Shown piece by piece: positions 12,393 to 63,396 of a stretch of 64,000 nt of DNA. The notes under the pieces are model-generated. The model was not told the DNA's origin. It worked only from the letters and a program-made list of their open reading frames with translations, and ran no database searches. Numbering within the stretch: the stretch's first letter is position 1; every line of letters begins with the position of its first letter. Made by a program: the position numbers and the translations under genes. Source of the stretch: an uncultured Alphaproteobacteria bacterium (GTDB lineage Bacteria; Pseudomonadota; Alphaproteobacteria; CAAHEQ01; UBA3637); NCBI GenBank assembly GCA_944392145.1, contig CALXVS010000004.1:5833-69832 (forward strand), in the 5' to 3' direction.

Positions 12393-12401
12393 TTTCTTTA
12401 C

Positions 12402-39046: not shown

Positions 39047-39047
39047 A

Positions 39048-41747: not shown

Positions 41748-41749
41748 AC

Positions 41750-42142: not shown

Positions 42143-42792
42143 ATGCAATGATTGCCGCATTTATTGAAACGCCGATGGATAATGAAGGCTTAAACGAACT
42201 GTTCGGTGGTTCAAGCGACGAATACTTGAATGCCAAAAAAGATTGGCAGGTCAAGTTAGAGGGTGGATCGATTATTCCGATATTCCCCGGAGATAAGGTC
42301 GCCCCATTTACCCCGTCTCGCCCGAACTCGGCATATGGTGCTTTCGTTGAAAACTTGCTCCGACACATCGGAACCGGATTAAACATTCCGTATGAGTTGC
42401 TGTTAAAAGACTTCTCAAAGACCAATTATTCGTCCGCTCGTTCTGCTTTATTAGAGGCTTGGCGATATTTCAACGGCCACCGGCAATGGCTGTCCGATTA
42501 CTGGGCAACACCGGTTTATGAACTATGGCTTGAAGAAGCTGTCAATAAGGGACTGGTTGATGCTCCGGACTTTTATGAGAACCGCTACGCATATACAAGA
42601 TGTAAGTGGATCGGTCCGGGTCGTGGTTGGGTGGATCCTGTCAAAGAGGCACAAGCCTGCCAAATCCGAATGGAGATAGGACTTTCAACATTAGAGGCCG
42701 AATGTGCCGGTCAAGGCTTGGACTGGGAAGAAGTTTTAGAGCAAAGAGCAAGAGAAAAGGAACGTATGAAAAAACTTTTTAACGAGCGTTGA
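42139..42792 (+). pseudogene. Phage portal protein (lambda gpB-like) C-terminal fragment
   Basis: C-terminal '…WIGPGRGWVDPVKEAQA…' block typical of lambda-family portals. N-terminal ~300 aa absent. Confidence 0.5.
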
Positions 42793-43134
42793 TAGCGAGG
42801 AAAATTAGTTTTTCTGGTTCCTTTCGCCGGATTACCGGTAAAATGCTGATAATAAAACATGCGACAGGCAAACTGCCAAACTCGCCGAATTAGGTTTAAC
42901 TTTAGGAGATTTAACCCGAAAGGAGGAAAAAACGATACAAAATGATGATGAAATACAGACTATAGAATAAAATTTTTATATATTTTGTAATTTTTATTGA
43001 ATTATTTGGGAATATCTGGGAAATTTTCTATTTTGCAAAATAGCAAAAATGCAAAAAAATAAAATAGGACTTGCTTTTATGTTTGTTTTTGGCTATATTG
43101 GAGTCATATTCCATTTTAGCCAAAAGGATGTCTT

Positions 43135-44358
43135 ATGTATCAAAGAACTTTATCACGTCATCTTGACCGATTAACTAAAAATTTTCCAGTATTATTAATT
43201 ACCGGCCCTCGTCAGGTCGGTAAATCAACGTTATTAGAAACTTATATTTCTGATAAATATAATCGTGTTACATTGGACGATTTGAATGAACGAGCAAAGG
43301 CAATTAATGATCCTGCTTTATTTTTGCAGGAACATCAACCCCCCGTTTTAATCGATGAAGTACAATATGCACCGGAACTTTTTAGTTATATAAAAATATA
43401 TGTTGATCAAAACAGAGATAAAAAAGGATTGTTTTTATTGACCGGTTCACAAAAATTTCATCTTATGAAAGGAATTCAAGAAACTTTGGCAGGTCGAGTA
43501 GCAATACTTGATTTATTGGGGTTGTCCAATCAAGAAATAAACAATCATCCTGATACTGTTCCTTTCCTTCCAACGGATGATTTTATTGATGAACTGAAAA
43601 AACAAAAAAAATCTCAAAGCACATTGCAAACGGTTTATACAAATATTTTTAACGGTTCTTTCCCTGAACTGGTAAGCAGAAACGGTGAAGACAGAGATAT
43701 TTATTACAGTTCTTATGTGAAAACATATATAGACCGAGATGTAAAAGGTTCTTATAATATATCTGACGCTATCAGATTTAATAATTTTATAAAAGCAGTG
43801 GCTGCACGAACTGGTCAATTATTAAACATTGCAGATATTGCCAGAGATGTATCTATTGATAATAAAACGGCCCAATCTTGGTTAAATATTTTAGAAGCTT
43901 CCGGTTTGGTGTATTTATTACATCCTTACTACAATAATATCACTAATCGTATTATAAAAACACCAAAGATTTATTTTTTGGATACAGGGTTATGTGCATA
44001 TTTAACAGGTTGGGATGCTCCAAAATCTCTTGAAGCGGGTGCTATGAGTGGAGCGATACTGGAGACATACGTGTTATCTGAAATACTCAAATCATATTGG
44101 CATAATGCTAAAGAACCAAATATTTATTTTTACAGAGATAAAGATGCTAAAGAAATTGATTTTATCATAGAGGCGAATAATACAATTTATCCGATAGAGG
44201 TAAAGAAAACAATGATGCCTGATTTAAATGCTTATAAAAACTTTAATGTACTTGAAAAACTGCAAAAGCCAATAGCAAAAGGTGTTGTTTTATGTTTAAA
44301 ACAGGAAGTATCTTTTATTTCTAGAGAAATTGTTGCAATACCTATTGCATTTATTTAA
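43135..44358 (+). CDS. AAA+ ATPase with DUF4143-like C-terminal domain
   Basis: Walker A 'GPRQVGKST', Walker B 'VLIDEVQ'. Widespread orphan ATPase family. Confidence 0.6.
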   Translation: MYQRTLSRHLDRLTKNFPVLLITGPRQVGKSTLLETYISDKYNRVTLDDLNERAKAINDPALFLQEHQPPVLIDEVQYAPELFSYIKIYVDQNRDKKGLFLLTGSQKFHLMKGIQETLAGRVAILDLLGLSNQEINNHPDTVPFLPTDDFIDELKKQKKSQSTLQTVYTNIFNGSFPELVSRNGEDRDIYYSSYVKTYIDRDVKGSYNISDAIRFNNFIKAVAARTGQLLNIADIARDVSIDNKTAQSWLNILEASGLVYLLHPYYNNITNRIIKTPKIYFLDTGLCAYLTGWDAPKSLEAGAMSGAILETYVLSEILKSYWHNAKEPNIYFYRDKDAKEIDFIIEANNTIYPIEVKKTMMPDLNAYKNFNVLEKLQKPIAKGVVLCLKQEVSFISREIVAIPIAFI

Positions 44359-47609: not shown

Positions 47610-48203
47610 ATGCGTAAAAATCAAGTCAGTCGAAATCAAAGGATTCATATTCCCAAAAAAGTGGAAGATGCTTCGGTACAATTAATGTTACCGGTAGATG
47701 TTGCTTCTGTAAAGCAAGCATTTGCAACAGCTAATGACAAACGATTTAAATATGCTGATGCGCTGGATCAAGCAACCAAAGAAGATCCGGAATTGCATCA
47801 AATTTCAACAATTCCAAGCGATTCAAGCGAATTAATTGTTATAACGAAACTTAAAAAACTGGGGGCTTATATTCTAGCCGTGACGGTTAAATCGCCGGCC
47901 AAATTCAGACCTGTTTTTATCAATCGGATGCAAAATTACAGCTTGTCGGCTTTGGAAAATTTATTGAATGCTAATTTTATTCGGATGGATAGCCCCGAAC
48001 ATAAAGCCCAGCGAGAAAAGCATCAAACGGATGCACTCATTCAGTTAAAAATGGTGGCATATGTTGCAATGCTGTCGGAAAATGCAAAGTGTATTTTGAT
48101 GAGGCAGTATAAACAAATATCAATTCAGGTTGGTGAAATTATTAACCTGATTATGGCATGGAAAAAAAGTGATGATAAACAATGGCAAACAAAAAAGTTT
48201 TGA
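47610..48203 (+). CDS. avd: DGR accessory variability determinant (Avd)-like protein with N-terminal extension
   Basis: C-terminal '…DALIQLKMVAYVAMLSENAKCILMRQYKQISIQVGEIINLIMAWKK' aligns with the BPP-1 Avd helices ('DAGLAMLRFWLRFL…QVLIAEVGRILGSWIAR'). Ends 40 bp before TR. Confidence 0.55.
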   Translation: MRKNQVSRNQRIHIPKKVEDASVQLMLPVDVASVKQAFATANDKRFKYADALDQATKEDPELHQISTIPSDSSELIVITKLKKLGAYILAVTVKSPAKFRPVFINRMQNYSLSALENLLNANFIRMDSPEHKAQREKHQTDALIQLKMVAYVAMLSENAKCILMRQYKQISIQVGEIINLIMAWKKSDDKQWQTKKF

Positions 48204-48243
48204 ATCCGAAAGGATCAAAAAAGGGAAAGTTGATAATGCGTAT

Positions 48244-48362
48244 TGTGCCTCTTGGTCCGCGTCTTCAAATGAAAATGAAAACGTGCGTTGCGTCAACTAT
48301 AAGGACGATAAGAACTGGAATAACACGAATAAACGTAAAATCTCGGCGCGCCCCGATTTGCT
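48244..48362 (+). repeat. DGR template repeat (TR), 119 bp
   Basis: Matches 49868-49986 with ~21 mismatches, ~20 of them at TR adenines. 3' GC-rich 'TCTCGGCGCGCCCCG' IMH*-like end. The overlapping ORF 48169-48561 is regarded as spurious. Confidence 0.85.
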
Positions 48363-48610
48363 TTTAAGGAGAACAACAAAATGTGGTCGGCAAAGACACA
48401 GATCTCTGAAACAAGCCAGATATGTGGATTTTAGAAAAAATCCGCCCGTGCTCAAAGCAAAGGAAACTTTCTCTTTTCTAACCGCTGTCAGCTTAATGCT
48501 CAGTGCGGTGGAAGAAGTAAAAATGCAGAGTTTGCGTTTTATGGGGTATCACATATATTGACACATTTTGTTTTAATATATTATCGGGTACCCCTTTTTT
48601 ATCAGAAAAG

Positions 48611-49690
48611 ATGACGATGAAGATTGAAGAGATATTTACATTTGAAAACCTGGTTGCGGCTCATAAAGCGTGTCGGCTGAGCAAGCAACATAAACGGGGA
48701 ACAATCATGTTTGAAATTGAGTTGGGGCGTAATGTCACCAATCTGGTCAAACAATTGACGAATAAAACATATCGTTTAAGTCCTTACAGATCCTTTACCA
48801 TTTATGATCCGAAGAAAAGATTAATTGAGGCTTTGCCTTACAAAGACAGAGTGGTTTTAATGTGCTTTTGTCAGCATTCGGTAGCTCCCCGGCTAGAGAG
48901 ACACCTTATTTATGATAATGCCGCCTCACGCAAAGAAAAAGGGACGCATTTTGCGGTGGATCGATTGCATTCATTTATGCGAAAGCTGTACATCAAAAAC
49001 AAAACAAATCGGATTTATTTTTTGAAATGCGATATCAGGAAATATTTTCAAAGCATCAATCATGAGATTTTACTGGAACAGTTGGCCAAAGTCGGTTTTT
49101 CGGCTGATGAGATGTGGTTTTTAAGGATGATTATTGAATCACACGGCTCTATCGGATTGCCCTTGGGTAATCAGACCAGCCAATGGTTTGCCTTGCTGTA
49201 TTTGAACGGAATGGACCGGCTGATTAAAGAACGCCTGCGTATGCTTTACTATGTGCGCTATATGGATGATTTTGTTATCCTAAGCGAAGATAAATCTAAA
49301 TTACAGTTATGCAAACAACAGATTGATGAATATGTTAAAGGGCTGAAGCTCTCCTTAAATCAAAAGACACAAATCGGGCTGTTATCGGATGGTATAGATT
49401 TTTTGGGATTTAACCACAAATTATCGGCCACCGAAAAGATTATTAAATCTCTGCGCGGATCGGCCAAAAGCCGCCAAAGAAAATACCTGAAAGCTATCCG
49501 TCACTACTATTTGAATGATGTTCTTGATGATGAGTACATAGACGTCCGTTTAGCCTCATATCGCGGGCATTTAAAGGGCACTAAGAACTGGCTACATATC
49601 TGCAACCGCTTGACCTCCTTGAAACACGAGAAACGTCGTACAAAAAAATTGTTGCAGAACAATAAATTGTATGATATACTGGGAGTATAA
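48611..49690 (+). CDS. DGR reverse transcriptase
   Basis: 'IFTFENLVAAHKA', 'YRLSPYRSFTIYDPKKRLIEALPYKDRVV', 'LGNQTSQWFALLYL' (DGR-type SQ motif), 'YVRYMDDFVIL' (YxDD), 'GIDFLGF'. Alignable with Bordetella phage bRT. Confidence 0.9.
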   Translation: MTMKIEEIFTFENLVAAHKACRLSKQHKRGTIMFEIELGRNVTNLVKQLTNKTYRLSPYRSFTIYDPKKRLIEALPYKDRVVLMCFCQHSVAPRLERHLIYDNAASRKEKGTHFAVDRLHSFMRKLYIKNKTNRIYFLKCDIRKYFQSINHEILLEQLAKVGFSADEMWFLRMIIESHGSIGLPLGNQTSQWFALLYLNGMDRLIKERLRMLYYVRYMDDFVILSEDKSKLQLCKQQIDEYVKGLKLSLNQKTQIGLLSDGIDFLGFNHKLSATEKIIKSLRGSAKSRQRKYLKAIRHYYLNDVLDDEYIDVRLASYRGHLKGTKNWLHICNRLTSLKHEKRRTKKLLQNNKLYDILGV

Positions 49691-49709
49691 GCTAAATTAG
49701 GAGGCTCGT

Positions 49710-51659
49710 ATGGGCTTTACGTTTTTGAAGGAAGATCAGATATGGGGCGATGATGCCCTGGATGTAATGAAACGTTATGGTACGAAGGTTGCGCCAACGG
49801 ATCTGACAGTCATATTGGGTGGTTATATGACCGGTGGTGGTGATCGTACTTCTGAAGATGATCTAACTTGTGCCTCTTGGTCCGCGTCTTCGAATGATTA
49901 TGGAGACGTGCGTTGCGTCTACTGTTTGGGCGTCCAGATCTGGAATGACGCGCATAAGCGTACGATCTCGGCGCGCCCCGCTTTGCCTCCATCGGAGGCA
50001 TCTAAAATCAGCCCGAGCGAAGCGAGGGCTATCGCTGGAATCCGCGTAGCGGAATATGGGGAATACCCGCAAACGGTCGCCGATGAGCGCACCAGTGCAA
50101 AATTAGAAAAATTACATGATTCAAGATCTCTCCGTCCGACCGGAAAAAATTACACATTTGATTCAGTTGATTTAGGCGATTATGGCACGTCTTTTAAGGC
50201 CACATCCTATCAGGAATATGAAATGGATGGCAAAAGGTATATCCGTGTTCCTGGACGGCCTGCTGACGGCGATAGCAAGCTATCTACAGGTGAACAGGTA
50301 GAAGAAGGAAAGCCATACTGGGTTGAGGTCCAACCGATAGAATGGCTGATGGATAGAAGCGGCACAATGGTCGCCAAAAAATGCTTATTCGCCGGTATTC
50401 AATTTGATACGAAAGATTCATATGATGGCGGCTTTTCCAAAACGTCCATAAAGCACTATTTGGACACTTATTTTGCCAAAGAAATGGAGCCGACCGGACG
50501 TGTGGCCGCAAGAACGGTATCAAGAGACTATGAAGAAGAGCCGGAAAGAAAAGAACCCGTTAAAAAGAAAGAACCGACAGCCAGACAGAAGAAATACGGG
50601 ATCGAGGTATCTGATGAGCCTATGCCCGTCAAAGACCAAATAAACTTCTATATTCAAAACGGAATGAGCTTCATGCTCCATGGCCCGTCCGGTGTCGGTA
50701 AATCACAACGTGTGAAAGAAATTGATCCGGATTTGACCTCAATTACACTGTGTAACGGAATTTTGCCTGAAGATGTTATCGGTAAAACAATCTATCCAAA
50801 CGGCGTGGGAGCCGATGGGGCCTCCGGTGGTGTTTGGGTGCCGCCTAAGTGGTACACGGATTTGTGCAGAAAATGCGAAACAGAACCGGACAAACAGCAC
50901 GTCTTATTTATCGATGAAGTGACCAATGCGCGTGAAACAACACAAAGTTTGATCTATCACGTAGCGTTGGAAAAATCAATTGCCCAGGGCGTTGGCAAAC
51001 TGCCTAATAATGCTGTGGTCGTGTTGGCCGGTAACAGCAAGGAAGAATCAGGAGCCGCTTATAACATGCCGGCCCCGTTGTTCAGACGTTTAAGCCATAT
51101 TTACTTGGACTTGAATATTCAGGATTGGTTGGAATGGGGCTCGGAACACAGCAAGAGCCATCCGGAAGATCCGGATCGCTTAAACATCCATCCGTTAGTC
51201 GCCAGTTTTGTGGCAACCTACGGACGGCAAGTGTTCTATTCCGAGTATGATGAAGAAAACCCCGGTAAGTTTGCTCTTGACCCACGAAAATGGGAAAAGG
51301 TATCAGATAAAATCTATGCCAATAAGGGTGTGATGCGCCGTGAGATTTTGGAAGCTGATATCGGGCCTGAATTGGCGGCCAGTTTATTGTCATATGCTAA
51401 AAATCCGCCGCTATCTTTGGAAGAAGTGATTGAGGGCGAATATACCCGCGAGGATATTCCTACGGGACAGGATGCCCGTTTGGCGTTGGCGTTGAGTTTG
51501 CGTCATGCAACACCGAAACAAGTCGGAAAAGTACGTCAATTTGTTGAAACACAGTTAGGCGCAGAAAATCGTGCGATTTTTGACTCTGTTTGGGTGGGCA
51601 AGGATGATACACGCGCCATGCAGATCGCCACTCTACATAACTTAAAGGGAGGAAGATAA
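49710..51659 (+). CDS. DGR target protein: N-terminal variable region fused to a MoxR-like AAA+ ATPase (649 aa)
   Basis: Strong RBS AGGAGG. VR encodes aa ~53-92 ('CASWSASSNDYGDVRCVYCLGVQIWNDAHKRTISARP'). Walker A 'GPSGVGKS' and Walker B 'VLFIDEV' further downstream. Confidence 0.75.
   Translation: MGFTFLKEDQIWGDDALDVMKRYGTKVAPTDLTVILGGYMTGGGDRTSEDDLTCASWSASSNDYGDVRCVYCLGVQIWNDAHKRTISARPALPPSEASKISPSEARAIAGIRVAEYGEYPQTVADERTSAKLEKLHDSRSLRPTGKNYTFDSVDLGDYGTSFKATSYQEYEMDGKRYIRVPGRPADGDSKLSTGEQVEEGKPYWVEVQPIEWLMDRSGTMVAKKCLFAGIQFDTKDSYDGGFSKTSIKHYLDTYFAKEMEPTGRVAARTVSRDYEEEPERKEPVKKKEPTARQKKYGIEVSDEPMPVKDQINFYIQNGMSFMLHGPSGVGKSQRVKEIDPDLTSITLCNGILPEDVIGKTIYPNGVGADGASGGVWVPPKWYTDLCRKCETEPDKQHVLFIDEVTNARETTQSLIYHVALEKSIAQGVGKLPNNAVVVLAGNSKEESGAAYNMPAPLFRRLSHIYLDLNIQDWLEWGSEHSKSHPEDPDRLNIHPLVASFVATYGRQVFYSEYDEENPGKFALDPRKWEKVSDKIYANKGVMRREILEADIGPELAASLLSYAKNPPLSLEEVIEGEYTREDIPTGQDARLALALSLRHATPKQVGKVRQFVETQLGAENRAIFDSVWVGKDDTRAMQIATLHNLKGGR
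49868..49986 (+). repeat. DGR variable repeat (VR) with IMH at the 3' end
   Basis: 119-bp partner of TR. In frame in the target gene. GC-rich 'TCTCGGCGCGCCCCGC' terminus differs from TR by one base. Confidence 0.85.
49985..49999 (+). promoter_or_regulatory. GC-rich hairpin (GCCTCC-atc-GGAGGC) immediately 3' of the VR
   Basis: Equivalent position and shape to the hairpin/cruciform element that enhances DGR retrohoming in Bordetella phage. Confidence 0.5.
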
Positions 51660-52133: not shown

Positions 52134-53972
52134 ATGCCTAATATGGTCACAGAGCAACAGGAAGAAATTCAATATATCAAAGAACAGGTTTTGGCCAAGT
52201 TCCCTTTGCTCGGCGTGACGATGAGACCCTTATCGGTTGTTCCTGATGATAGAATTGGAACAGCGGCCACAGACGGGCATCGCATTATCTATTCTCCAAA
52301 GTTTTTTAGCACTTTATCGGATGAACAGAAACAATTTGTCTTTGCGCATGAAGTGATGCATGTCGCTTTTAACCACATTTTGCGCAGTAAGGGCCGTAAT
52401 CAAAGGTTGTGGAATATCGCAACCGATTCTGTTATCAACCAAATTCTGAAAAATGAAAAATTGCCATTAACGGAAGGTGGTGTTGATATTGCAGAAGCTG
52501 TCAACCATTCGGCCGAAGAAATGTATGAAAAACTCTTGAAAAAGAAAGAACAGCGTGATCAGGAAAAGGGGCAAAATCAAGAGCAACAGCAACAATCACA
52601 ATCCGGTGGGACGGACCAGCCTCAGGATCAGGATGCACAAAATCAGCCTGAACAGGAACAACCTCAGGATCAAGACGGACAAAATCAATCCGGACAAGAC
52701 CAGCCTCAGGATCAAGACGGGCAAAAGGGACAAGAACAATCCGATCAACAATCAGACGGTTCGGAAAATCAAGATGAACAAAACAAAAATTCATCAGAAG
52801 GCTCGGAAGGATCCGAACAACAGAAAGATCAATCTCAAGATGGTGATTCAAACTCTGATCAAAACAGTTCTTCCGGTCAGGGAGACGAAAATCAATCTGA
52901 TTCAAATTCCGAACAATCAAGCGACAATCAACAAGGATCCTCTAAACCCCAAAAGGGTGGTCAACGTTCGCAATCCGGTTCTTCCTCTCAATCAGAAGAC
53001 ACCGACTGGGATGACAGCAATATCGATTGGGACAATGAAGATGAACAAGTAGGCCACGATACACACGATATTTGGAAAGAAGCGGTTGAAGAGGCAGAAC
53101 GTGAAGAACAACGGAAACAGGAACAAGCGAATAAGAAGAGTTTGTGGGATAGGCTGAAAGAAGCCATGGGGCAAAAAGAAGTTAAAGAGGATCAGCAAGG
53201 CGAACCTCAAGAAAAAGAAGCTCCTATACCGCAAGATGAAAACATGGATGCGTATGAAAAAGGCTTCTTGGCAGAAAATCAAGAAAAACGTCATGAGATG
53301 GCCGAACAGGTGCGCGAGCAATTAAACAGGATAAAAGGAAGCCTCCGTCAATCAAATGATCATACCACCCTCGGGGATGTTGGGGAAACTCAAACGCCGG
53401 TGGTTGATTGGAAAAAAATGCTTAAAAAATCTTTTGATGAAGAGCGTGATCGTTGGTCCTATCGTCGTTCCGGTTCTGAAAACGACTATATGGCTCGGGT
53501 GGAAGAATTGGAAGATGAAGGCCGTCCGGATACGGAAGTCATGTTGGATGTGAGCGGTTCTGTAAATATCCGCTTGTTACGTGAATTTTTAAGACAACTT
53601 AAACCGCTCCTCAAATCCTCTAAATTAAAGGTCGGTTGCTTTGATGAGTTTGTTTATGACTTTAAGGAAATAAAGACTAAAGAGGATATTGACCATTTCC
53701 AAATTACGGCAAAATCTCAATGGACTGAAAACTGGGATGCGGCTGTCCGGGCATTTTCTAAGAAAAAAGAAGTGAATAAAATTATTTTTACAGACGGATA
53801 TCCATGCCCAGGAACAATGCCTAAAGAAGATTTAAAGGGTAAGAATGTTATTTGGATAGTTTACGGAAATAAAGATTTTAATCCATGCTGTGGTAAAGTC
53901 ATCCAGGTTTCTGAACGACAACTTCAGTCGTATATTCAGACGGCCGCTCCACTTTCTAGAGGTGGAAGATAA
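52134..53972 (+). CDS. Putative metallopeptidase (HExxH) - acidic low-complexity linker - VWA (MIDAS) domain protein; MoxR partner
   Basis: 'HEVMHVAFNH' zinc-binding motif. Long Q/D/E/S-rich linker. C-terminal 'DVSGSV…' MIDAS-type VWA. Confidence 0.6.
   Translation: MPNMVTEQQEEIQYIKEQVLAKFPLLGVTMRPLSVVPDDRIGTAATDGHRIIYSPKFFSTLSDEQKQFVFAHEVMHVAFNHILRSKGRNQRLWNIATDSVINQILKNEKLPLTEGGVDIAEAVNHSAEEMYEKLLKKKEQRDQEKGQNQEQQQQSQSGGTDQPQDQDAQNQPEQEQPQDQDGQNQSGQDQPQDQDGQKGQEQSDQQSDGSENQDEQNKNSSEGSEGSEQQKDQSQDGDSNSDQNSSSGQGDENQSDSNSEQSSDNQQGSSKPQKGGQRSQSGSSSQSEDTDWDDSNIDWDNEDEQVGHDTHDIWKEAVEEAEREEQRKQEQANKKSLWDRLKEAMGQKEVKEDQQGEPQEKEAPIPQDENMDAYEKGFLAENQEKRHEMAEQVREQLNRIKGSLRQSNDHTTLGDVGETQTPVVDWKKMLKKSFDEERDRWSYRRSGSENDYMARVEELEDEGRPDTEVMLDVSGSVNIRLLREFLRQLKPLLKSSKLKVGCFDEFVYDFKEIKTKEDIDHFQITAKSQWTENWDAAVRAFSKKKEVNKIIFTDGYPCPGTMPKEDLKGKNVIWIVYGNKDFNPCCGKVIQVSERQLQSYIQTAAPLSRGGR
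52605..52745 (+). repeat. Imperfect tandem repeats (CAGCCTCAGGATCARGAYGG.CAAAA…) encoding (Q-P-Q-D-Q-D-G-Q-N-Q)n
   Basis: Three visible copies within the linker of 52134-53972. Confidence 0.45.
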
Positions 53973-54014: not shown

Positions 54015-56046
54015 TTAATATAAATTAGCCTCAAAAATTTGATAAAGGTCAAATTCTATACCGTCAACGCCTCTGATGAGGTCTATTTCGTCTTCGGCGG
54101 CGACATCAATTCGGGCCTGATCCAAAAACAAGCCTTCTTCTTTTTTGCGGAGTTGTTTTTCCATTTCGTTGATTTGCTTTTGAATTTTAAGTTCTTCTAA
54201 GCGGTCTTTGGCACTACCGATACTTTCTTTAATTTTTGATGTTTCTTGGCGTAAGGATTCAAGAGTTTGTTCTAATACGGCTTTTTGACGAGATGAACGC
54301 ATTTTGATAATATCAATATCCGTATTAAAAGCACCTTCTTGTTGTTTGATATAGTTGTTTTTCAACTCATCTTCTAAGAATACTGGCAACCTGTCAGAAA
54401 ACGAACTGTTTGCTAGCCAATAAGAGCGTTCTCTATCCTTATTTTCAACAGATTTAATTGGCTGTGATAAAATTTTGACACATTCTTCTTGGGTTAAAAT
54501 CTTGTCATCTTCTGTTTTGCCGGTTAAAACATCATAATTTTTAAGAAACTTTCCCTTTCGGCGTAATTCAACATTATACATACTGATTTGGCAAGATTCA
54601 ATGCTTGTTTCAAGCTGTATTTCGCCCTCTGTAGCACACTCAATTTCACTAAAAATTCCCTTAGCTAAAATAGAAGTTAAGGTAATTCTTCCGCTTGCCG
54701 GTTTAAAATCTTTGGTCATGCCATACTGACGTTTTCCCGTATAAGGTGTGTTTCTTGTCCCGGTCCAATAATAGAACATATGTGGCAATTCACAATCATC
54801 CGGTAAAGTTAATGTTTGATTGATATCATCAATAATATATTGAGGATGATGCTTTTCAAAATAAAACTTCACAACCTCCCATAAGTCCCGATTGAGAAAT
54901 TCTGCCTGTTCTTGAATATATTGAGGTGAGACCTGTATTTTTTCGGCCACATCCTTTGTAAATGTCGTAAATAAAACACTTTCGGCATCCGAAACAACTT
55001 GTGCGTTGGCATCTTTATTTATCTCTAAATTCTGTGCAAAATCCCGTTGAATATCGGGCAAGGTTCGGCGTTTTTGCAAAACTGCTTCCAATGTTTCATC
55101 AAAGTTGCCCACCATATCATCCGACATCCCGAAAATACCCTGAAATTGTAAAGTTCGTTTGTTAATCAATTCCAAAATACGCACATCAGACATATTTTCC
55201 TGACTGAGCAAATTGATAACCAACACATCGGATTGTTGCCCTTGACGGTGGCAACGACAAATTCGTTGTTCCATCTCAACGGCATTATAAAGTAAATCAT
55301 AGTTCGCGACAACCGGACAGTATTCTATGTCTAAACCTTTGGCAGTTGCATCGTTTGTGATGAGAATTTGAATATTTTTATCTTCTCTAAAAATCCTCAA
55401 AGCATTATCATCTGTGTGTTTTATAACTGAATAATGTCCCTTCAATAACTTTGATAAAACGGATATCCTGCTCCTGATTGATGATATTTTCAGCCTTTTT
55501 AAAAGCGTCAATGTTGATAATCATAATTTCAATGTTGCTGGAAGTCGCAAAAGCCCGAACATCTGACAGTTTTGCCGAATTATAGATAAAATATCTGTAA
55601 GGCACGCTGTCATATTGATTTTTAAAGTGTTCTTCGGTGATTTGGAAGGATTTATTCACACCTTCACGAATAGCAATACTTGGCACAACAATGATAAACT
55701 TTGTAAAGCCGTAACGTTTATTGAGTTCCAAAATTGTTTTTGTGTAAACATAGGTTTTACCGGTTCCGGTTTCCATTTCAATAGAAATAGGCAAGGCTTT
55801 GCCGGATTCAATATCTGTTTGAGGCAAAGATTGACCTTTTTGAATATTTTTCAAATTAGAAACAAGCGTTTCCTTATCAAGCAGAAGTTTGTTACCAAAA
55901 CCAAAATCATTTTGCAATAAACTAAATTGAGCCGAATTATCAACGATAGAAAAAGTTGTTCCGGCTTTTTCTTGTCCTTTGAATAAATCAGCAACAGCAT
56001 TAACTGCCTTTTCTTGAAATTCCTGTTTCTTAAATTTTAGTTTCAT
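54015..56046 (-). pseudogene. Type III restriction enzyme Res subunit (SF2 helicase-nuclease), frameshifted/internally deleted
   Basis: N-part ORF 55408-56046 carries Walker A 'METGTGKTYVY'. C-part ORF 54015-55511 begins with helicase motif 'ILITNDATAKGLDI' and 'QRICRCHRQG'. The two ORFs overlap out of frame at 55408-55511. Combined length is short for Res. Confidence 0.55.
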
Positions 56047-56995
56047 TGCTATCGCCTATTGCTTCTTTGTTTTTATCAGAAACATCTATTGTATTAGGAT
56101 GAGATTGGTATGGGCTAGAAAATACATTACCTATTTGTGTCATAGCTCCTTGAGCTTGAGCGGCACCAATCTTTTGATGTATGTATTTCACTCTATCTAA
56201 ATTCACATAATCTTGCATATTTCTATATACCGAAGTCTTCATATTATCTTTTAATATTCTTTTCTCAAGAATTTTATATTCATCTTTTAAAATACTAATT
56301 TTCGCATTATTGCATACAACATCTTGATTTTCTATTGTTGTTTTTTCGGGAATATTAACGATTTCAGCTTCAAAATTGTAGCAAACTTGTTCGTTTGCTG
56401 ATGTTAAGTAGTCTATTGTACAATCAAAATTTAAAATTGTTTGATTGTTCTTATCCAACTCTTCCCAAAGTTTATCTCTTTGTTCTGTATTATGCATTCT
56501 TACGATAATTTCTTCATTTCCTCTTAATAAATTTACAAAATTTGAGAAATGATCTTCTATTTTTGCATCTGAACTTGTCTTTAATATTGTTTTTATATCT
56601 AATTTTACCGAATGTATATCTTTTTTGCTTTCATTTTTTATAGAAAATAAGCGATTATTTTGGATATTTCTTTTTTCATTATCATCAAAAAAATCAAAAC
56701 CATCTTTATCAGATGAAACGAGTAATACTCTATCTCGAATATTAAAAAGAATAAGTTCCTCAATAATTCCAAAAAAACTTCCCATTTTAATGGTAGGCTT
56801 AATGATTACCATATTATTACGTCTATTTTGATACTCTTTATCTTTCTCATACAGTTCAACAGTCTTTTTATTTGTGTACCAAACCGCTATAAATGTTACT
56901 ATAGCAGTTAATACACCAGCAAATATAGTTGCACCAAACATCCACCAGTCTGTTATGGCTTCCATTATTATTTCTGTTTCTTGGGTATCCATCAT
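56030..56995 (-). CDS. Hypothetical membrane-anchored protein (321 aa) between mod and res
   Basis: One N-terminal TM (WWMFGATIFAGVLTAIVTFIAVWY). K/N/E-rich. No motif. Confidence 0.3.
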   Translation of the reverse strand: MMDTQETEIIMEAITDWWMFGATIFAGVLTAIVTFIAVWYTNKKTVELYEKDKEYQNRRNNMVIIKPTIKMGSFFGIIEELILFNIRDRVLLVSSDKDGFDFFDDNEKRNIQNNRLFSIKNESKKDIHSVKLDIKTILKTSSDAKIEDHFSNFVNLLRGNEEIIVRMHNTEQRDKLWEELDKNNQTILNFDCTIDYLTSANEQVCYNFEAEIVNIPEKTTIENQDVVCNNAKISILKDEYKILEKRILKDNMKTSVYRNMQDYVNLDRVKYIHQKIGAAQAQGAMTQIGNVFSSPYQSHPNTIDVSDKNKEAIGDSNETKI

Positions 56996-57004
56996 TCAAA
57001 TCCT

Positions 57005-57703
57005 CTACAACAACTCAATCTCAATGCCTTTGTCTTTACTGATATAATAGGCGTTGGAAAGGGCGACATCGTCCTTAAAGGCTTCTTCGGCGGCGACGAT
57101 TTTGGCTGGTGTCAAATCGCACATAGCCGTAATATCTTCCGGTGTAATACCTCCGTTAGAACCATCCAAGCATACGAGAACAAGTCCGTCTTCGCCAATG
57201 GAATAGACTTTACGGCCGTTAATGTCAATCGGGGCTACCTTGTATGTAACGGGAATACCCAATTTTAACATCACTTCATACACCACGTCCAATTCCGAAC
57301 GGTCAAATTTCAAGCTTTTAATCATAGTATCAAAGCGTTCTTTCAAGGCATTTGCATCGTCAGTCGGTGTATCATCCCATTTGACGAGGTTGGAGGTATC
57401 CAACTTCAATGTTTTGAAACCGGTATCAACTTCGGGATGTTCGGCTTTAATCTTAGCTCCGGCACGGAGGATACGTTCTTTGCCGATTTCGCAAATGTTT
57501 TTGTATCCGGCTTTAAAGGCTTCTGATTTCTCGTCTGTTACTTCCGGCAGTTGTACCATAATGAATTGACGTTTTCCGCCATCTTCAGCATTTAATTGCA
57601 TAACGGCATGAGCCGTAGTTGCAGAGCCAGAGAAAAAGTCGAGGATGATATCGTCATCTTTATCTGTTGCTATTTGTAGCATTTCTTTTATATATGGTAT
57701 TGG
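57005..57703 (-). pseudogene. Type III Mod (N6-adenine methyltransferase) C-terminal fragment
   Basis: '…[36 protein letters not shown]…' (motif I region of beta-class MTases). The ORF-track N-terminus (57707-57898) is antisense read-through of the groEL fragment. Confidence 0.6.
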
Positions 57704-57704
57704 T

Positions 57705-58247
57705 TTAGCTAAGTTATCCGGCGGCGTAGCCGTTATTAAAGTCGGTGGAGCAACTGAAGTTGAAGTCAAAGAAAAGAAAGATCGTATTGATGATGCTTTA
57801 CATGCAACACGTGCTGCTGTTAAAGAAGGTGTTGTTGTTGGTGGTGGTGTTGCTTTATTGTATGCAACACGTGCATTAGAAGACTTAAAACCAGCCAATG
57901 ATGACCAACGTGTTGGTGTTGATATTATTCGTCGAGCAATTCAGGCTCCATTGCGTCAAATCGTTTCAAACGCGGGTGAGGATGGCGCTGTTGTCGTTGG
58001 AAAACTGTTGGAAAAATATGATACCAATATGGGTTATGATGCTCAAAAGGATGAGTATACAAATATGTTTGACGCAGGTATTGTTGACCCGACTAAAGTG
58101 GTTAGAACAGCTTTAGAAGGCGCATCTTCTGTCGCTAGCTTGCTAATTACAACAGAAGCTATGGTGGGTGATAAGCCGGAAGATGAATGTTCTTGTGGTA
58201 AAAATGCTGCCGCAGGTGGCATGCCAGGTATGGGTGGTATGTACTAA
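57705..58247 (+). pseudogene. groEL: groEL 3' fragment (C-terminal ~180 codons of chaperonin GroEL)
   Basis: '[52 protein letters not shown]…' to the GGM-rich tail. Homology starts abruptly at ~57705 with no N-terminal part. Confidence 0.7.
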
Positions 58248-58270
58248 TAAGCTCCGCTATCCTTGGTTTA

Positions 58271-58300
58271 AAAAAGCTCTTCGAAAGAAGAGCTTTTTTT
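58271..58300 (+). terminator. Rho-independent terminator after the groEL fragment (AAAGCTCTTC-gaaa-GAAGAGCTTT + T-run)
   Basis: Perfect 10-bp stem, T7 tail. Confidence 0.55.
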
Positions 58301-58511
58301 ATTTCTTTACAAGATAAATATATTTTTTTCTTTTAAAATGAATAAAAGAATGTTAAGTTTTTAAAAAAGGATAAATTTGTTAGGATGGCCAGCATGTTTT
58401 CTTTTATAAAAAATTTACTTATTATAAGATTAAATAACTTTTTAACAAAATAATGGTTGACGACTTTTTTTTATAAATTAAAAATAAAATATGAATTTTA
58501 TAAATTATATT

Positions 58512-58561
58512 CAAGGAGTTTGTTAATGATTACCCCCCCCATGCAAATCACGAAACAATAA
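58512..58561 (+). promoter_or_regulatory. RBS (AAGGAG) + 11-codon mini-ORF (58526-58561) containing a C8 homopolymer (58533-58540) upstream of the Cys-rich gene
   Basis: ATGATTACCCCCCCCATGCAAATCACGAAACAATAA. A -1 change in the C tract fuses this ATG in frame with the downstream ORF. Confidence 0.4.
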
Positions 58562-58619
58562 TATCAATACTCGCAAAAGTTTAAAAAAATCTTTTTTTTC
58601 CTTTCAATCAGGTCGGAGC

Positions 58620-61139
58620 ATGATAGAGATGCTGGGAGTACTGGTTATTGTAGGTGTATTGAGCGTAGCGGCATTATTTGGATTTACCTATGCGATGAAC
58701 AAGTATAAAGCGAACGAGACGATTCATGATGTGATGTTACGTGCTTCGAATGTCCCGATGATAGATGAGTATTATCAGATACGACCGACAAATTATGCAT
58801 TTAAATTTCCGGATTTACAGGATGAGTTGTCTTCTATGGGGTATACGATGAAGACATTAAAGACGGATGAATTTGGGTATGTGTATAAGGTGGAAGCCCC
58901 TTCGGTGCCGAGACGGATATGCAGTTTAATTTTACAGATGGAACCGACGGACATAGATGAGATCCGGATAGGGACGGAGAAGATATTATATACGGCGGGA
59001 CATTCAGAGCTATGTGAAGAGTACAAGGATAGTTCAACGGAAAGCACGATGATGACCTTTTACTTTGAACGGGGTTGTGAGACGAATGCGGACTGTAGTA
59101 AGTGTCAAGAATGTTATCAAGGTCGTTGTAAAGCGAACTATGATTTACCGGGATGTGGAGAACCTGTAGAATGTAATGGAGATGATGATTGTCCGGATGG
59201 TTTATGTTGTCGTGATGGTTCTTGTACGACGAATTGTGGTATAGAAACATGTGATCCACCTTGTGATGAGTGTCACACATGTGATGAGAGTTTGCGTCAA
59301 TGTATTAAGAATACTTGTTCTATAGAGAGTTGTCCTGAGGGGCAAGAAGCGAGTGGCTATGATAAGTGTGGATGTATAGAAGGCTGTATAGAGAAGTGTC
59401 CAGATTTGAAGTGTAATGAGGAATGCACAGTCCCGAATTACGACACCTGTAGTTGTGAGGCGGATTCGGATCCCTGTTGTGGGTTCGAAGGAGCTGCGTT
59501 GACTTGCTGTCTAGGAGGATTGAGTTGCACGGAGCCGTGTCAAGAGGCGAATTACGAGAGTTGTACCTGTGAACCGAAGGTTTGTACATTAGAATGTAAA
59601 GAAGGGGAAGAAGCGACGGGGTATGATAGTTGTGGCTGTCCGACGGGTTGTTCTCGTCCGTGTACAGATGATTGGGAGTGTAATGGGTTTTGTTCAGTTT
59701 GTGAGGGAGGATATTGTGTAGATAAGACGGAGCAACAAGATATATCGGAATGTTGTGATGGTAGTTCATACACGAGTTGTTGTCCGTTAAATGGGAATAA
59801 TTGTGGTTGTACGCCCAATACATGTGCTTTAGTTGTTTCAGAGATACCGGTTGGTCAAGAGGCCTGTTATGAGAATGTTCCTGAAGGAGGAGAGATATGT
59901 GGTGAAGTCTGTTCTGGAGGGTATAAGAAGAAAGCGTGTCCGAGTGGGGATCATTGTCCTGAAGGAGAACGAGAGATAGGGCGAGATGAATGTGGATGCC
60001 CCTATTGTGAACCATGTCCTGATGGTGAATTTTCTTGTGGGACGGAATGTTGTAATGCTGCTAGCGAAACTTGTTGTGGAGGGAGTATTTGTTGTCCGGT
60101 AGGGCATGCCTGTTGTGAAGGGGTATGTTGTGGAGAGGGGCAAACTTGTGGAAATAATGGTGTTTGTTGTTCTCCTTGTGAATTGACATGTTTAGGACAA
60201 GGCTTAGAATTAGACGCTTGTGGGTGTCCGACTATTTGCGGTTGTGATGATGAAAAACAATGTCGTGCAAATGAAATCACTGAAGATGACAATATTGACT
60301 GTTGTGAATTTGTAGGCGGTGTTTACCATGATAACCATTGTTGTTCAACAGATCTTCCTTATTGGTCTGACGAAGAAAAAAAATGTGTAAAATGTTTAAT
60401 TGATCAGCATTGTCAAGAACGGAAGGATGGAAAAATAAGGTGTAATCAAGAAACAAAAATATGTGAATGTCCGGAAGATAAACCTTATTTTTCAGGAGAA
60501 AAATGTGTCGAATGCTTAAATAATGCAAATTGTTCAGATAGAACGGACGGAAAAACGCAATGTGATACAGAAACTTATACTTGTATTTCTGGTTGTATTT
60601 CTTTAGGAGAAACATGTGAAAAAGACAATGGAGAAGGTGGCCTTTGTGTTAAGGAGAGCAATTCTTCTTCTACACTTGTTTGTTGTTCAGTTGATAAAAT
60701 GGTTGTGAAACTTAATGGCATCGGATGTCCAGCTTCTCCACCAAATCAATATAAAGAATGTTGCGAGGATGGTAAAGTTTATCGTCCTAAATCAGTTGGA
60801 ACTGGTTGCTGTCGTTCTCCTAATGTTTGGATGTCGTCTGTTTCTTCTCTTTCTTTTTCCTCTAAACACTGTGATATTCCTCTTCCAGATGAGTATTTGA
60901 TGAGATCATGTTGTTGCCCTGGTCTAAATTATATTTGTTCTGAAACAGGAGATTGTGTAAAGATAGATGAAGTGGATGATATCGGAGAATGTACAGAAAT
61001 ATGTACAAGGACTGATAAGTTGTATAAAGTTTGTTGTAAAGGTGGAACGCCGACACAAACAGCAGGTGGATGGTATAGCTGTCCAGGATGTGAATGTACG
61101 GAAGCTTTATTGCCGGAAACTTGCTCCTTTGGTGGTTAA
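58620..61139 (+). CDS. Giant cysteine-rich protein (839 aa from first ATG) with type IV pilin-like N-terminal helix
   Basis: '(GRS)MIEMLGVLVIVGVLSVAALFGFTYAMNKYKANETI' homologous to the N-terminus of the 28193 protein. ~120 Cys (~15 %) in CxxC, CC and CxC arrays. AGA/AGG/ATA-rich codon usage unlike the core genes. In-frame upstream extension to 58530 lacks a canonical start. Confidence 0.6.
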   Translation: MIEMLGVLVIVGVLSVAALFGFTYAMNKYKANETIHDVMLRASNVPMIDEYYQIRPTNYAFKFPDLQDELSSMGYTMKTLKTDEFGYVYKVEAPSVPRRICSLILQMEPTDIDEIRIGTEKILYTAGHSELCEEYKDSSTESTMMTFYFERGCETNADCSKCQECYQGRCKANYDLPGCGEPVECNGDDDCPDGLCCRDGSCTTNCGIETCDPPCDECHTCDESLRQCIKNTCSIESCPEGQEASGYDKCGCIEGCIEKCPDLKCNEECTVPNYDTCSCEADSDPCCGFEGAALTCCLGGLSCTEPCQEANYESCTCEPKVCTLECKEGEEATGYDSCGCPTGCSRPCTDDWECNGFCSVCEGGYCVDKTEQQDISECCDGSSYTSCCPLNGNNCGCTPNTCALVVSEIPVGQEACYENVPEGGEICGEVCSGGYKKKACPSGDHCPEGEREIGRDECGCPYCEPCPDGEFSCGTECCNAASETCCGGSICCPVGHACCEGVCCGEGQTCGNNGVCCSPCELTCLGQGLELDACGCPTICGCDDEKQCRANEITEDDNIDCCEFVGGVYHDNHCCSTDLPYWSDEEKKCVKCLIDQHCQERKDGKIRCNQETKICECPEDKPYFSGEKCVECLNNANCSDRTDGKTQCDTETYTCISGCISLGETCEKDNGEGGLCVKESNSSSTLVCCSVDKMVVKLNGIGCPASPPNQYKECCEDGKVYRPKSVGTGCCRSPNVWMSSVSSLSFSSKHCDIPLPDEYLMRSCCCPGLNYICSETGDCVKIDEVDDIGECTEICTRTDKLYKVCCKGGTPTQTAGGWYSCPGCECTEALLPETCSFGG

Positions 61140-61297
61140 AAGGTGTTTTATCTTGCTATCTATCGTAAGGGAGACTCTCAATGAAAAGTTTTATTTTCAA
61201 AAATGAAATTTTCTGGAAGTGTTTTTTAGGACAAACTAGTTTCTAGTTTTGTTCAGATAATTAAAACTTTGTTCTTGTGTGTTTTAAGGTAAACTTT

Positions 61298-62095
61298 CTA
61301 TTTTTCAACAGATTTTTTTGAAATTAATGTAGAATAAATAGTAGCTTGTTGGTTGTCTTTTTTATCATAAGTAGAACAAGAGTTTTCTTTTAATAGTTGT
61401 AAAATCTCAGGATCTTGAGGCATATATTGGCCTGTTTTTAAATCTAATCTATTTTGGTAAAGATGCATTGCTTGTTCAGAAGAACGAGCACCTCCATTGA
61501 TTAAGGCTTTTATTGTATGTTTATCTCCATAACGAGCCGCATGCATTAAAAGAGAAGTGCCGTTAGTGTCCGTTTCATTTACATCAGCTCCTTTTTTTAT
61601 AAGAGTTTCAAGAATTGGCGTTAACTCAGGTTTACCATGTGCGGCAATAATAGCTAAGTACAAAGGGGATTGGTTCATATGATTTTTTTTATTAGCTTGT
61701 GCGCCAACATTCAACAATGTTTCAACAAGCTGTGATTTTCCATTCAACACTGCTGCTGTCAGGAGTGTTTGTCCCCACCCATTCTTAATGTCATTTAGTC
61801 CGGGAGCTGTTAGATGTTCTTTTTCAATATGGTGTATAGGAATATTTTTCACGCCGTGATCTGTAAGTATTTGATATTGCCATTGATCTAAAGGAAATGT
61901 CGGTTGATTGAAGAAATCAATTCCATCAAAAGATTGAACTAGTTTTGTTTTTTCGGATTGTTTTTCCGCCGCCTGAGCTGTTTGTGTTTCTAAAGAAAGG
62001 GCCGCAGCTCCAATTAGAATCGTTTTTTTTAATACATCTTTTAAGGACATATTTCCCTCCTTCTCATAGTATAACACAAATAAAAGTATTTTCAA
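61298..62095 (-). CDS. Secreted ankyrin-repeat protein (265 aa)
   Basis: Signal peptide (…AAALSLETQTAQA). ANK units ('GQTLLTAAVLNGKSQLVETLLNVGAQAN', 'GTSLLMHAARYGDKHTIKALINGGA'). Confidence 0.6.
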   Translation of the reverse strand: MKILLFVLYYEKEGNMSLKDVLKKTILIGAAALSLETQTAQAAEKQSEKTKLVQSFDGIDFFNQPTFPLDQWQYQILTDHGVKNIPIHHIEKEHLTAPGLNDIKNGWGQTLLTAAVLNGKSQLVETLLNVGAQANKKNHMNQSPLYLAIIAAHGKPELTPILETLIKKGADVNETDTNGTSLLMHAARYGDKHTIKALINGGARSSEQAMHLYQNRLDLKTGQYMPQDPEILQLLKENSCSTYDKKDNQQATIYSTLISKKSVEK

Positions 62096-62259
62096 ATAGT
62101 TTTTTCATATTTTATGAAAAAACTAAAAGAGGAGATGAAACTGAATATGAATTTTTATTTGATATGAAAAAAGAAGGAGAGGTTTTTTCTTTGATGTCAA
62201 GTTCTATAAAAAAATCAGGTGTTGATAGGTTTTACTGATGTTGTCAATTGATTTTTTTC

Positions 62260-63396
62260 TTAAAAAATATGTTGTTCTTTAGGTGTATCAAAGACAATAC
62301 TTTCAAATAAATTTTTTATTTCATCAGCCGCATTAGCAGCATTTGATACATTATCCCATAAAGTTTCAGGTATTTTTCCTTTGTTTTCATATATAAAGAG
62401 CTTACGATATATGTTATCACCATGTATAATCAATTTATTATCTTCATCCATTTTGGTTAGATTTTCTTTACTAAACAACCACAATCTTTCAGAAAAATAC
62501 TGACCTGATTTACTTGTAAAATCGTACTTAACACCTCCTTGCGTACCTCTTGCCCAGCAGGCTAACATTCTATAATCGCCACGAGGATCATTGTCTGGAT
62601 TTTTATAGGCTTTTTTAGTTTCGTCATCTAATTCAAGAAAATTTGTATTAAAATAATCTTTTGATTTTGAATAGAGAACTAAATATTCGTGAGCTTTACT
62701 AAACCATCTTGCTGAATTATCGCGTCCTCTTTTTCTTTTCCAAACTATTTGTGCTACAAAATTTTCTTCTCCGAAAACCTCATCACAAATACGACGAAGA
62801 TTCGTCACCTCATTATCATCAATGCTGATAAAAATCACACCATCATCACGAAGTAAGTTAGAGGCTAAACGCAAGCGAGGATACATCATATTCAACCAGT
62901 TGGTATGATATCTGCCCATTGTTTCGGGATTTAATTTTGTTGTTTGACTTGTAATTTCTTTATATTTTGCCATTGGGTCCTTAAAATCATCTTCATAAAC
63001 AAAATCATTACCGGTATTATACGGTGGATCAATGTAAATCATCTTAACTTTGCGATAATAGGCTGTTTGTAAAAGTTTCAAAACTTCCAAATTGTCGCCT
63101 TCAATATACAGATTATTGGTGTTTTCAAAATCAACGCTTTCCTCCGGACAAGGACGGAGTGTTCCGGTTGAACGCTTACCTGCAATCCGATAGCATTCAG
63201 ATTTGCCTTTCCATTCAAATTTATACTTTTCAAAGTCGTTGTCTATATATTCGCCACATAAAGACAAAAGTTTATCAATATCCAAATTACCCTCGGTAAA
63301 ACACTCAGGAAAAACCGTTTTCAACTTTTCCTTGTTTACGCCCGTCACATCAAAGCTTTTGCCGTCCATTTTTTGAATTTGAATATCGTCTGCCAT
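62260..63396 (-). pseudogene. Type III Mod methyltransferase N-terminal fragment (378 aa)
   Basis: 'IYIDPPYNTGNDFVYEDDF' (motif IV DPPY) … ends '…IVFDTPKEQHIF*' where the KP…LI region and motif I should follow. Confidence 0.65.

Follow-up and report, generated by a model that had tools for sequence, protein, structure and literature searches.

The described genes closest to the one analysed here are those for surface proteins in which a short repeat, lying either in the leader or in the promoter, turns expression on and off. In Neisseria, pilC carries a poly-G tract of G9–G15 in the region encoding its signal peptide, and the leaders of the opa genes, which are present in 11–12 independently switching copies, contain CTCTT repeats. 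Switches in the promoter spacer are found in the vlp genes of Mycoplasma hyorhinis (poly-A) and in fim of Bordetella (poly-C), and a large, variable family of CxxC-rich surface proteins, few of which are thought to be expressed at once, is that of the variant-specific surface proteins (VSPs) of the gut organism Giardia. For Neisseria both layouts have been documented, with poly-G in the 5′ coding region of pilC, poly-C between the −10 and −35 elements of fetA in N. gonorrhoeae and a poly-G switch in the promoter spacer of porA in N. meningitidis, and variation of the tract between strains has been used there as the criterion of phase variation, with candidate tracts of C7–C8 being accepted (PMC5320596). 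Here we describe a gene for a cysteine-rich protein with a pilin-like N-terminus in 64,000 nucleotides (nt) of DNA from an uncultured alphaproteobacterium (GCA_944392145.1, contig CALXVS010000004.1, positions 5,833 to 69,832 of the forward strand; this whole stretch is called the window below). It is probably a phase-variable gene in its OFF state, one of a repertoire encoding Cys-rich variable proteins with type IVb pilin heads.

A homopolymer between start codon and leader

The initial annotation of this gene, made from the letters of the window alone, had described an open reading frame (ORF) of 839 codons with about 120 Cys (~15%) in CC, CxC and CxxC arrays, whose in-frame leader has no start codon and lies behind a strong ribosome-binding site that drives an 11-codon mini-ORF through a C8 run; it had predicted that loss of one C would fuse the ATG of the mini-ORF to the leader and the full protein, and it had called the codon usage unlike that of housekeeping genes. 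All of this was borne out when the sequence was read again (coordinates of the features are given in Table 1). The ORF contains the string CCGGSICCPVGHACCEGVCCGEG and, in the frame of the gene, the leader reads LPPPCKSRNNNINTRKSLKKSFFSFQSG/RSMIEML (the slash marks the predicted cleavage site here and below), beginning directly 3′ of two in-frame stops, TAA at 58524–58526 and TGA at 58527–58529. No ATG, GTG or TTG occurs in the leader frame between these stops and 58620, and an alternative in-frame start for the ORF was ruled out on these grounds. Third-position GC content (GC3) is 0.28 in the ORF versus 0.39–0.50 in local housekeeping genes, and its TGT:TGC ratio is 112:11 versus 13:13.

The C8 run lies four codons after ATG 58526, and is of a length (~7–8 nt or more) at which G/C repeats in the 5′ coding region or the promoter are regarded as mutable. 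In a simulation of the reading frame, tracts of C7, C10 or C13 each yielded one continuous precursor, MITPPCKSRNNNINTRKSLKKSFFSFQSGRSMIEM..., and C8 yielded the 11-codon ORF; in silico, a change of repeat length moves the gene in and out of frame with ATG 58526, as in a contingency locus. The run is the single longest of G or C in the window (199 runs of 4 nt, 41 of 5, 9 of 6, 2 of 7 and one of 8), although its length alone is unremarkable because about 0.5 such runs are expected somewhere in the window. What is remarkable about it is its place inside a leader of ~90 nt, which makes up ~0.1% of the window, together with its recurrence in orthologs and paralogs. A second homopolymer to which the initial annotation had drawn attention, a T8 run within the leader, is present, but is specific to the window allele, since the two other alleles described below read TTCTTCTTTGT at this place. 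Another T8 run (58465–58472) stands directly after the −35 box of the promoter-like site, where allele L083 has T7, and occupies the slot held by poly-G in the paralogs with promoter-type tracts.

Alleles of the 5′ cassette differ in the tract

In other assemblies the 5′ cassette was found as two diverged alleles, at the loci L022 and L083/L084 (homologous loci are denoted by L and a number). In L022 the tract is C12 and in L083 it is C6AC6 (CCCCCCACCCCCC), as against C8 in the window, and the 60 nt upstream of it, which include the Shine–Dalgarno sequence and the ATG, are identical in all three. Apart from the tract, only one indel, of 3 nt, separates the leaders of these alleles, so the reading frame is kept downstream of the tract. 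In the comparison of tract length that the initial annotation had proposed as a check, the length thus varies between conserved flanks, and the finding that it had named as contrary, an invariant tract with a conserved mini-ORF, was not obtained: the mini-ORF peptide itself differs between the window (MITPPMQITKQ-stop) and L022 (MITPPPHANRE-stop). A conserved regulatory upstream ORF, which was considered as an alternative role for the mini-ORF, was ruled out on account of this variation.

The ortholog L022 is likewise out of frame, at another tract length. Three further family members carry C13–C14 in the leader, among them L021 with C13 and L077 with C14, which is out of frame. L020 is near-identical to L077 upstream and has a degenerate tract, GGCCCCCTCCTCCC, which puts it in frame from the equivalent ATG as MFISRKVGPLLPSSKINKFLSSNQTG/RSMIEML, which indicates that in a sister copy an ATG 5′ of the tract can work as the start codon. 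In L032 (~2975) the leader is frameshifted by an A8 run and would be ON at A9. Any OFF allele is bound to lie a single nucleotide away from some ON length, and this trivial fact was not counted as evidence. Exact-pattern scans of JGI metagenome contigs found no further alleles of the 5′ cassette.

A sequencing or assembly artefact at the homopolymer, with the real gene intact and constitutive, is hardly credible. Some sequencing chemistries do make errors at homopolymers, and the window is derived from a metagenome, but the same C8 stands in the NCBI-derived window, in the ENA scaffold, in a Logan contig and in a second ENA assembly of the clone, the last with 0 mismatches over 5.5 kb (100% identity). 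The Illumina indel error is low at 8 nt, and L022 is out of frame too, at a different length. As C8 is shared by separate assemblies of the clone, the frameshift is real, and there is no heterogeneity at the consensus level.

G/C tracts upstream of family genes

The tract is not peculiar to this cassette. A run of at least 8 G or C (8–16 nt) was present in 37 of 75 5′ regions of family genes, and 25 of these 37 runs stand directly after a TTGACA-like −35 hexamer (gap 0–7 nt) and before a TAnnnT motif (gap 0–5 nt). The tracts in these 25 paralogs, G/C(8–16), set spacers of 13–20 nt between −35 and −10 elements that were recognised by consensus only, and the arrangement so predicted is the classical layout of transcriptional phase variation. 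Over the 367 kb of family loci that were fetched, 34 of the 40 G/C runs of at least 9 nt fall within 460 nt upstream of family genes, a compartment that amounts to 8.7% of the DNA (binomial P ~2e-30); the repeats are associated non-randomly with this class of gene, as in contingency loci. Homopolymers of 8–16 G or C are a family-wide feature of the predicted promoters and leaders, and the pattern suggests that uncultured Alphaproteobacteria have a repertoire of surface proteins that can be switched one by one.

Four long tracts coincide with contig ends, the contigs starting or ending at G11–G16 or C12 tracts (position 1 of L062 and of L066, the end of L052 and position 35 of L026), and many contigs stop within the conserved N-terminal domain. 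Short-read assemblies systematically break at family genes, and gene calling cuts off part of their N-termini (836 or 839 amino acids rather than ~868). This is a warning for metagenomics in general, as the ON or OFF state of such genes is readable from the reads only.

The pilin-like head and its link to pilus machinery

The initial annotation had also noted a pilin-type N-terminus shared with the product of a second gene in the window (28193–29449), and the same N-terminus was found in that paralog, behind an intact leader. Its assignment as a pilin was confirmed by a family profile, by the predicted fold and by the linkage of relatives to a type IVb pilus operon. Against the NCBIfam profile TIGR02532 (prepilin-type cleavage/methylation domain) the repaired N-terminus scores 16.6 bits, 0.3 over the cut-off of 16.3; the Pfam profile N_methyl is below threshold in 10 of 13 family members, and the weak PDB profile matches of the domain are pilins. 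The signal is of class III, …FQSG/RSMIEMLGVLVIVGVLS, with Gly(−1), Glu(+5) and a hydrophobic α1N segment, and two nearly invariant Cys lie in the domain (codons 58920–58922 and 59013–59015). An AlphaFold2 (AF2) model built from an alignment of 60 sequences, a model from 13 sequences having been too uncertain (predicted local distance difference test, pLDDT, 60), has the fold expected of pilins, in which a long α1 helix packs on an antiparallel β-sheet with a disulfide-bounded C-terminal region.

A motif scan uncovered GspE-like ATPases upstream of family genes and led to a pilus operon. In three metagenome-assembled genomes (MAGs) a family member lies directly 3′ of T2SSE and T2SSF genes (L035, L056 and L081, upstream of 3001), and in L035 a G12 tract of the promoter type stands between the platform gene and the family gene. 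In the closest relative, L091 (4899–13046), genes for a TcpQ-domain protein, a secretin, an R64-type PilO, a 306-residue ORF, an ATPase and a platform protein are followed by a family gene at the contig end, and this cluster adjoins VirB4, TrbC and SLT genes of a type IV secretion system (T4SS). With family genes next to a pilus operon in these relatives, the lineage has a type IVb pilus system to which the family is genetically tied; the link is seen in the relatives and not in the window. No Flp or TadE was found by a motif scan of all fetched DNA. The paralog at 28193–29449 belongs to a conserved ortholog group, 80–86% identical in many assemblies, and may be a constant component of the pilus, contrasting with the variable copies. 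Its C-terminus resembles a lectin-type domain (…MNWWSAQNYCEAIGGRMATVADF…), and Pfam gave no domain there.

The conserved features of the head also bear on whether the protein could be made irrespective of the tract, either from an internal start at ATG 58620 or 58629, which would give a leaderless, uncleaved, membrane-anchored form, or by slippage that restores the frame at a low constitutive level and is either ribosomal (+1, on CCC-A) or transcriptional (on the C run). A GGAG at 58615–58618 lies 10 nt before ATG 58629, the start picked by public gene callers (P0001, 836 amino acids), runs of CCC codons are prone to +1 frameshifting, and alleles with nonsense codons in the leader (L083 and L085) keep ORFs of 775 and 619 amino acids. 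However, this GGAG is part of the codons CGG-AGC, is present also in L020 with its intact leader, is missing in many family members and is merely 1 nt from ATG 58620. In the large RTLLEML subgroup Met(+3) is replaced by Leu, which leaves no internal start that is conserved, and a form without the residues from Gly(−1) through Glu(+5) would be deprived of the features whose conservation marks the family. As the mini-ORF ends 59 nt before 58620, translational coupling to an internal start is unlikely too. Expression that bypasses the tract strikes us, on balance, as quite improbable.

The Cys-rich extension and the family

Residues 161–839 contain 17.5% Cys, arranged in 19 CC, 10 CxC and 11 CxxC motifs, and modules recur along the extension (for example, CPEGQEASGYDKCGCIEGC occurs three times); there are no tandem repeats of note within the gene. 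The Cys of the extension are conserved at 71–86% versus 28–61% for other residues, which fits a predicted disulfide scaffold with variable loops. The kinship of these arrays with EGF, laminin or metallothionein modules, which the initial annotation had suggested from their spacing, found no support, as the window protein matched 0 Pfam families at E<=10, a PDB sequence search of the Cys-rich region gave nothing meaningful, and no EGF-, laminin-, metallothionein- or VSP-type module was recognised in it. The only PDB matches of the region, to TSLP, were dismissed as chance. Marginal matches to EGF_2, EGF_Teneurin or Dumpy occur in some homologs.

A protein search returned 107 homologs, all from metagenomes, in which an N-terminus of ~150 residues is conserved, as leader-G/RSMIEMLGVLAIIGVLS…ANETIHDVMLRA.NVPM, and the Cys-rich tails (7–17% Cys) are variable. 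A collection of species-representative genomes gave 105 matches, of which 80 were kept, and these are spread over about ten records, one titled Butyrivibrio and the others uncultured or MAG Alphaproteobacteria. The labels of some homolog records hint at gut metagenomes (Hadza, HGM), and only one among the ~230 homologs listed carries a source name. A search with the paralog at 28193 gave a wider set of at least 630 matches, and a profile of the N-terminal domain found 6354 clusters (50% identity) at E<=1e-3, or 5217 at E<=1e-10. Copies are dispersed singly among housekeeping genes, with two in the window and 10–25 in several related MAGs.

The gene in the window is a mosaic, in that its 5′ cassette and last 1 kb match L083 at 86–98%, its N-terminal domain matches L003 and L004 at 90–93%, and its middle part matches neither. 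The ratio of non-synonymous to synonymous substitution rates (dN/dS) is 0.03–0.18 in the N-terminal domain, a sign of coding constraint. No description of this protein family was found in the literature, and neither the family nor its architecture nor its arrangement as a repertoire seems to have been described.

Genomic context

The features of the gene and its surroundings are listed in Table 1. By blastn, the cassette is 86–98% identical to L083 and L022 over 58403–58775 and 60278–61337. The alleles L083 and L022 sit between rpsM and adk, and the window copy lies behind a groEL fragment within a mod gene that is split; in view of these different settings, the cassette must have moved. In the window it is part of a 4.5-kb insert, lying in an island of low GC3, that splits a type III mod gene and contains a 3′ fragment of groEL, a terminator, the Cys-rich gene and an ankyrin gene. 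At the flanks of this insert there were no inverted or direct repeats that would convincingly identify it as a transposon. The groEL fragment (57645–58247) covers positions 331–489 only of the Pfam profile Cpn60_TCP1, and its GC3 of 0.25, unlike that of local housekeeping genes, suggests a foreign origin. The type III restriction–modification system around it is in pieces (54015–63396), with mod split at its TPKP motif into 62260–63396 and ~57005–57700, and res split into 54015–55511 and 55408–56046.

Table 1. Features of the Cys-rich gene, its control region and related elements, in window coordinates
Feature	Position	Strand	Remarks
Paralog with intact leader, no tract	28193–29449	+	16-residue leader MKKDVTSQTILSTDTG/RSMVEML; N-terminus as in ORF 58620
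groEL 3′ fragment and terminator, left part of 4.5-kb insert	57645–58299	+	terminator 58270–58299
Cassette shared with alleles elsewhere	58403–61337	+	gene with its 5′ control region and ~200 nt of 3′ flank; blastn
Promoter-like site	58457–58485	+	TTGACG-17 nt-AAAAAT; consensus scan only, weak evidence
Shine–Dalgarno AAGGAG	58513–58518	+	7 nt 5′ of ATG 58526; same in three alleles
Start codon of the proposed ON form (ATG 58526) and 11-codon dead-end ORF at C8 (OFF product)	58526–58561	+	sequence reading
Leader-peptide coding region, gene frame	58530–58613	+	…CKSRNNNINTRKSLKKSFFSFQSG; Gly(−1) at 58611–58613; without own start codon
C8 homopolymer, proposed slipped-strand switch	58533–58540	+	predicted ON lengths C7, C10, C13
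T8 run inside leader	58592–58599	+	specific to window allele
Type IVb pilin-like domain	58614–59099	+	R(+1)SMIE(+5)ML; 48-residue α1 helix; β-sheet head
Cys-rich ORF	58620–61139	+	839 amino acids, 123 Cys (14.7%); sequence reading and ORF listing of 58200–61400
Cys-rich variable extension	59100–61139	+	680 residues, stop codon included; mosaic of segments shared with different paralogs

Elsewhere in the window, a diversity-generating retroelement (47610–49986) consists of a bAvd-like ORF (47610–48203), a template repeat (48243–48361), a reverse transcriptase gene (48611–49690) and a variable repeat (49868–49986) inside the ORF 49710–51659; template and variable repeats differ by 21 mismatches over 119 nt, 20 of the 21 being at template adenines. 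Positions 1–14362 hold a giant Gly-rich repeat ORF, which runs on the minus strand from 5506 past position 1 (>1835 amino acids) and leaves the window, beside T4SS genes (CagX/VirB9-like, 5507–7252; two VirB8-like, 7365–9001) and five ORFs without a Pfam match (8998–14362). A single ORF of 1078 amino acids at 17025–20261 combines LptF/LptG permease and LptD domains; this is a fusion of an unusual kind or else reflects a stop or a frameshift that was missed. An island of low GC content (0.29–0.36) at 34000–44000 includes two chromate-transporter halves, a PAPS reductase, an EF-Tu-like GTPase (CysN-like), an arylsulfotransferase, a resolvase and prophage scraps (a lambda-type portal fragment and an S49 protease). 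Three tandem 42-nt repeats, 74–100% identical, occur at 52613–52738 inside an ORF for a DUF2201 metallopeptidase/VWA-like protein (52134–53972).

A switchable or a decaying copy

Several observations weigh against a working switch of a pilin-like product. Of the alleles with this type of leader (window, L022 and L083) none is ON. L083, in which the interrupted tract is in frame, has CGA changed to TGA in its leader (~930), and L085, another family member, has CAA changed to TAA (~960–1000, giving MKKK-stop-TG); family leaders therefore also decay or may be dispensable. The C8 tract, invariant among the assemblies of the clone, is shorter than the C12–C14 of relatives and so less mutable, being among the shortest of the tracts known to be mutable. 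The gene lies in a scrambled island of low GC3 with split mod, split res and the groEL fragment, and dN/dS is ~1.4 in the C-terminal 286 codons when compared with L083, a value that fits diversifying selection but also relaxed constraint. Nearly all of ~200 homologs have Arg at residue +1 (a few have Lys), where known pilins have Phe (type IVa) or Met, Leu, Val or Ser (type IVb). Pilus machinery was not found in the window, nor was the motif of the A24 prepilin peptidase (GGGDxK) found across the 524 kb of fetched DNA.

Some of these points would be explained if this were a silent copy in decay, put out of frame effectively for good after its move into a junk island, with C8 the shrunken remnant of a longer tract. 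Its place in the insert that splits mod, next to a likewise broken res, the GC3 foreign to housekeeping genes, the uniform C8, the nonsense mutations in sibling leaders (TGA in L083 and TAA in L085) and the high dN/dS of the C-terminal part all agree with such a history. We nevertheless regard it as unlikely. Several lesions together with lost constraint, as expected of a pseudogene, were not seen: all 839 codons are open with no internal stop, dN/dS is low in the N-terminal domain, and the scaffold Cys are far better kept than other residues. The Shine–Dalgarno sequence, the ATG and the frame of the leader are intact, the sole leader indel being of 3 nt, and the only defect falls exactly in the tract, which is hypervariable between alleles and used family-wide as a regulatory device. 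The proposal of the initial annotation, that this is a candidate ON/OFF contingency gene, is supported by the tract differences between alleles, by the start of L020, by the family-wide tracts and by the evidence for a pilin.

A proposed mechanism

The gene, read as phase-variable and currently OFF, would encode a precursor with a class III (prepilin-type) signal, comprising a basic leader, Gly(−1), R-S-M-I-E(+5) and a long hydrophobic α1 helix, followed by the type IVb pilin-like head and by the disulfide-scaffolded variable extension of 680 residues. Translation would begin at ATG 58526 behind the strong Shine–Dalgarno sequence, and the poly-C tract four codons on would set the frame: at C8 the ribosome would stop after 11 codons, and slipped-strand mispairing in replication to C7 (or C10, C13) would link the ATG to the leader and allow the whole protein to be made. 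Other family copies would be gated likewise, or by a G/C tract in the −35/−10 spacer of their promoters, and, copies being gated individually, a population could display different subsets of them. The ON product would be cut by prepilin peptidase and then handled by the type IVb pilus machinery of the lineage, most plausibly as a pilus-associated variable adhesin or antigen, at the tip or in the manner of a minor pilin. The anatomy of the sequence, the logic of the frame, the differences in tract length between alleles, the enrichment of tracts across the family, the pilin fold and the operon linkage in relatives are shown here; switching and its rate, cleavage, surface display and the function as adhesin or antigen are what we infer from them. 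If they are confirmed, uncultured Alphaproteobacteria of a commensal type would possess a contingency-gene repertoire, and with it a new way to diversify pilus-associated adhesins.

A wider and more speculative possibility, which we hold only tentatively, is that this uncultured, apparently gut-associated lineage runs combinatorial surface variation on its type IVb pilus, with dozens of dispersed genes that each join a pilin head to a different disulfide-scaffolded Cys-rich module, are gated independently by a G/C tract in promoter or leader, and are reshuffled by recombination between copies. Such a system would functionally replace the PilV shufflon of R64, or the pilE/pilS conversion of Neisseria, with a repertoire in the style of opa or vlp, and would converge on the Cys-rich coat of Giardia. 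If it exists, the lineage might use it, together with its T4SS and ankyrin proteins, to attach to the cells of a host or of protists.

Comparison with known systems

Among the described systems, pilC and opa of Neisseria provide the nearest parallel, as there too the frame depends on a repeat placed behind the start codon and ahead of the mature protein, the product belongs to the pilus or the surface, and switches in multiple copies act independently. The protein family is unrelated, however, the product here itself has a pilin head, and C8 is shorter than the G9–G15 of pilC; the organism is an uncultured alphaproteobacterium, not a known pathogen, and its switch is predicted from sequence.

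The 25 paralogs in which a tract sets the −35/−10 spacing (13–20 nt) instead resemble fetA, porA, vlp and fim, and vlp in particular, where many copies of one variable surface protein family each have their own gating tract. In contrast to these systems, the window copy would use the translational mode, and the promoters of the paralogs are recognised by consensus only.

Considering the product, the type IVb pilins and large minor pilins, viz. CofA and CofB, TcpA and TcpB, PilS of Salmonella Typhi and PilS and PilV of R64, share only 7–14% identity with the head and lack its Arg(+1), and they have no counterpart to its tail, a Cys array (15–17%) without a known domain. The PilV shufflon of R64 differs also in the source of variation, which here would be dozens of dispersed genes gated by simple sequence repeats, with incorporation into a filament and cleavage being predicted only. 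The VSPs of Giardia are likewise a big, variable family of Cys-rich surface proteins, a likeness by analogy only, as there is no detectable homology (Pfam, E<=10) and both anchoring and switching mechanism are different.

Set beside these systems, the single locus is not mechanistically new, because a homopolymer between start codon and leader is a textbook switch; what is new is the object that is switched, a multi-copy, mosaic subfamily with 7–17% Cys within a very large superfamily of pilin-headed proteins.

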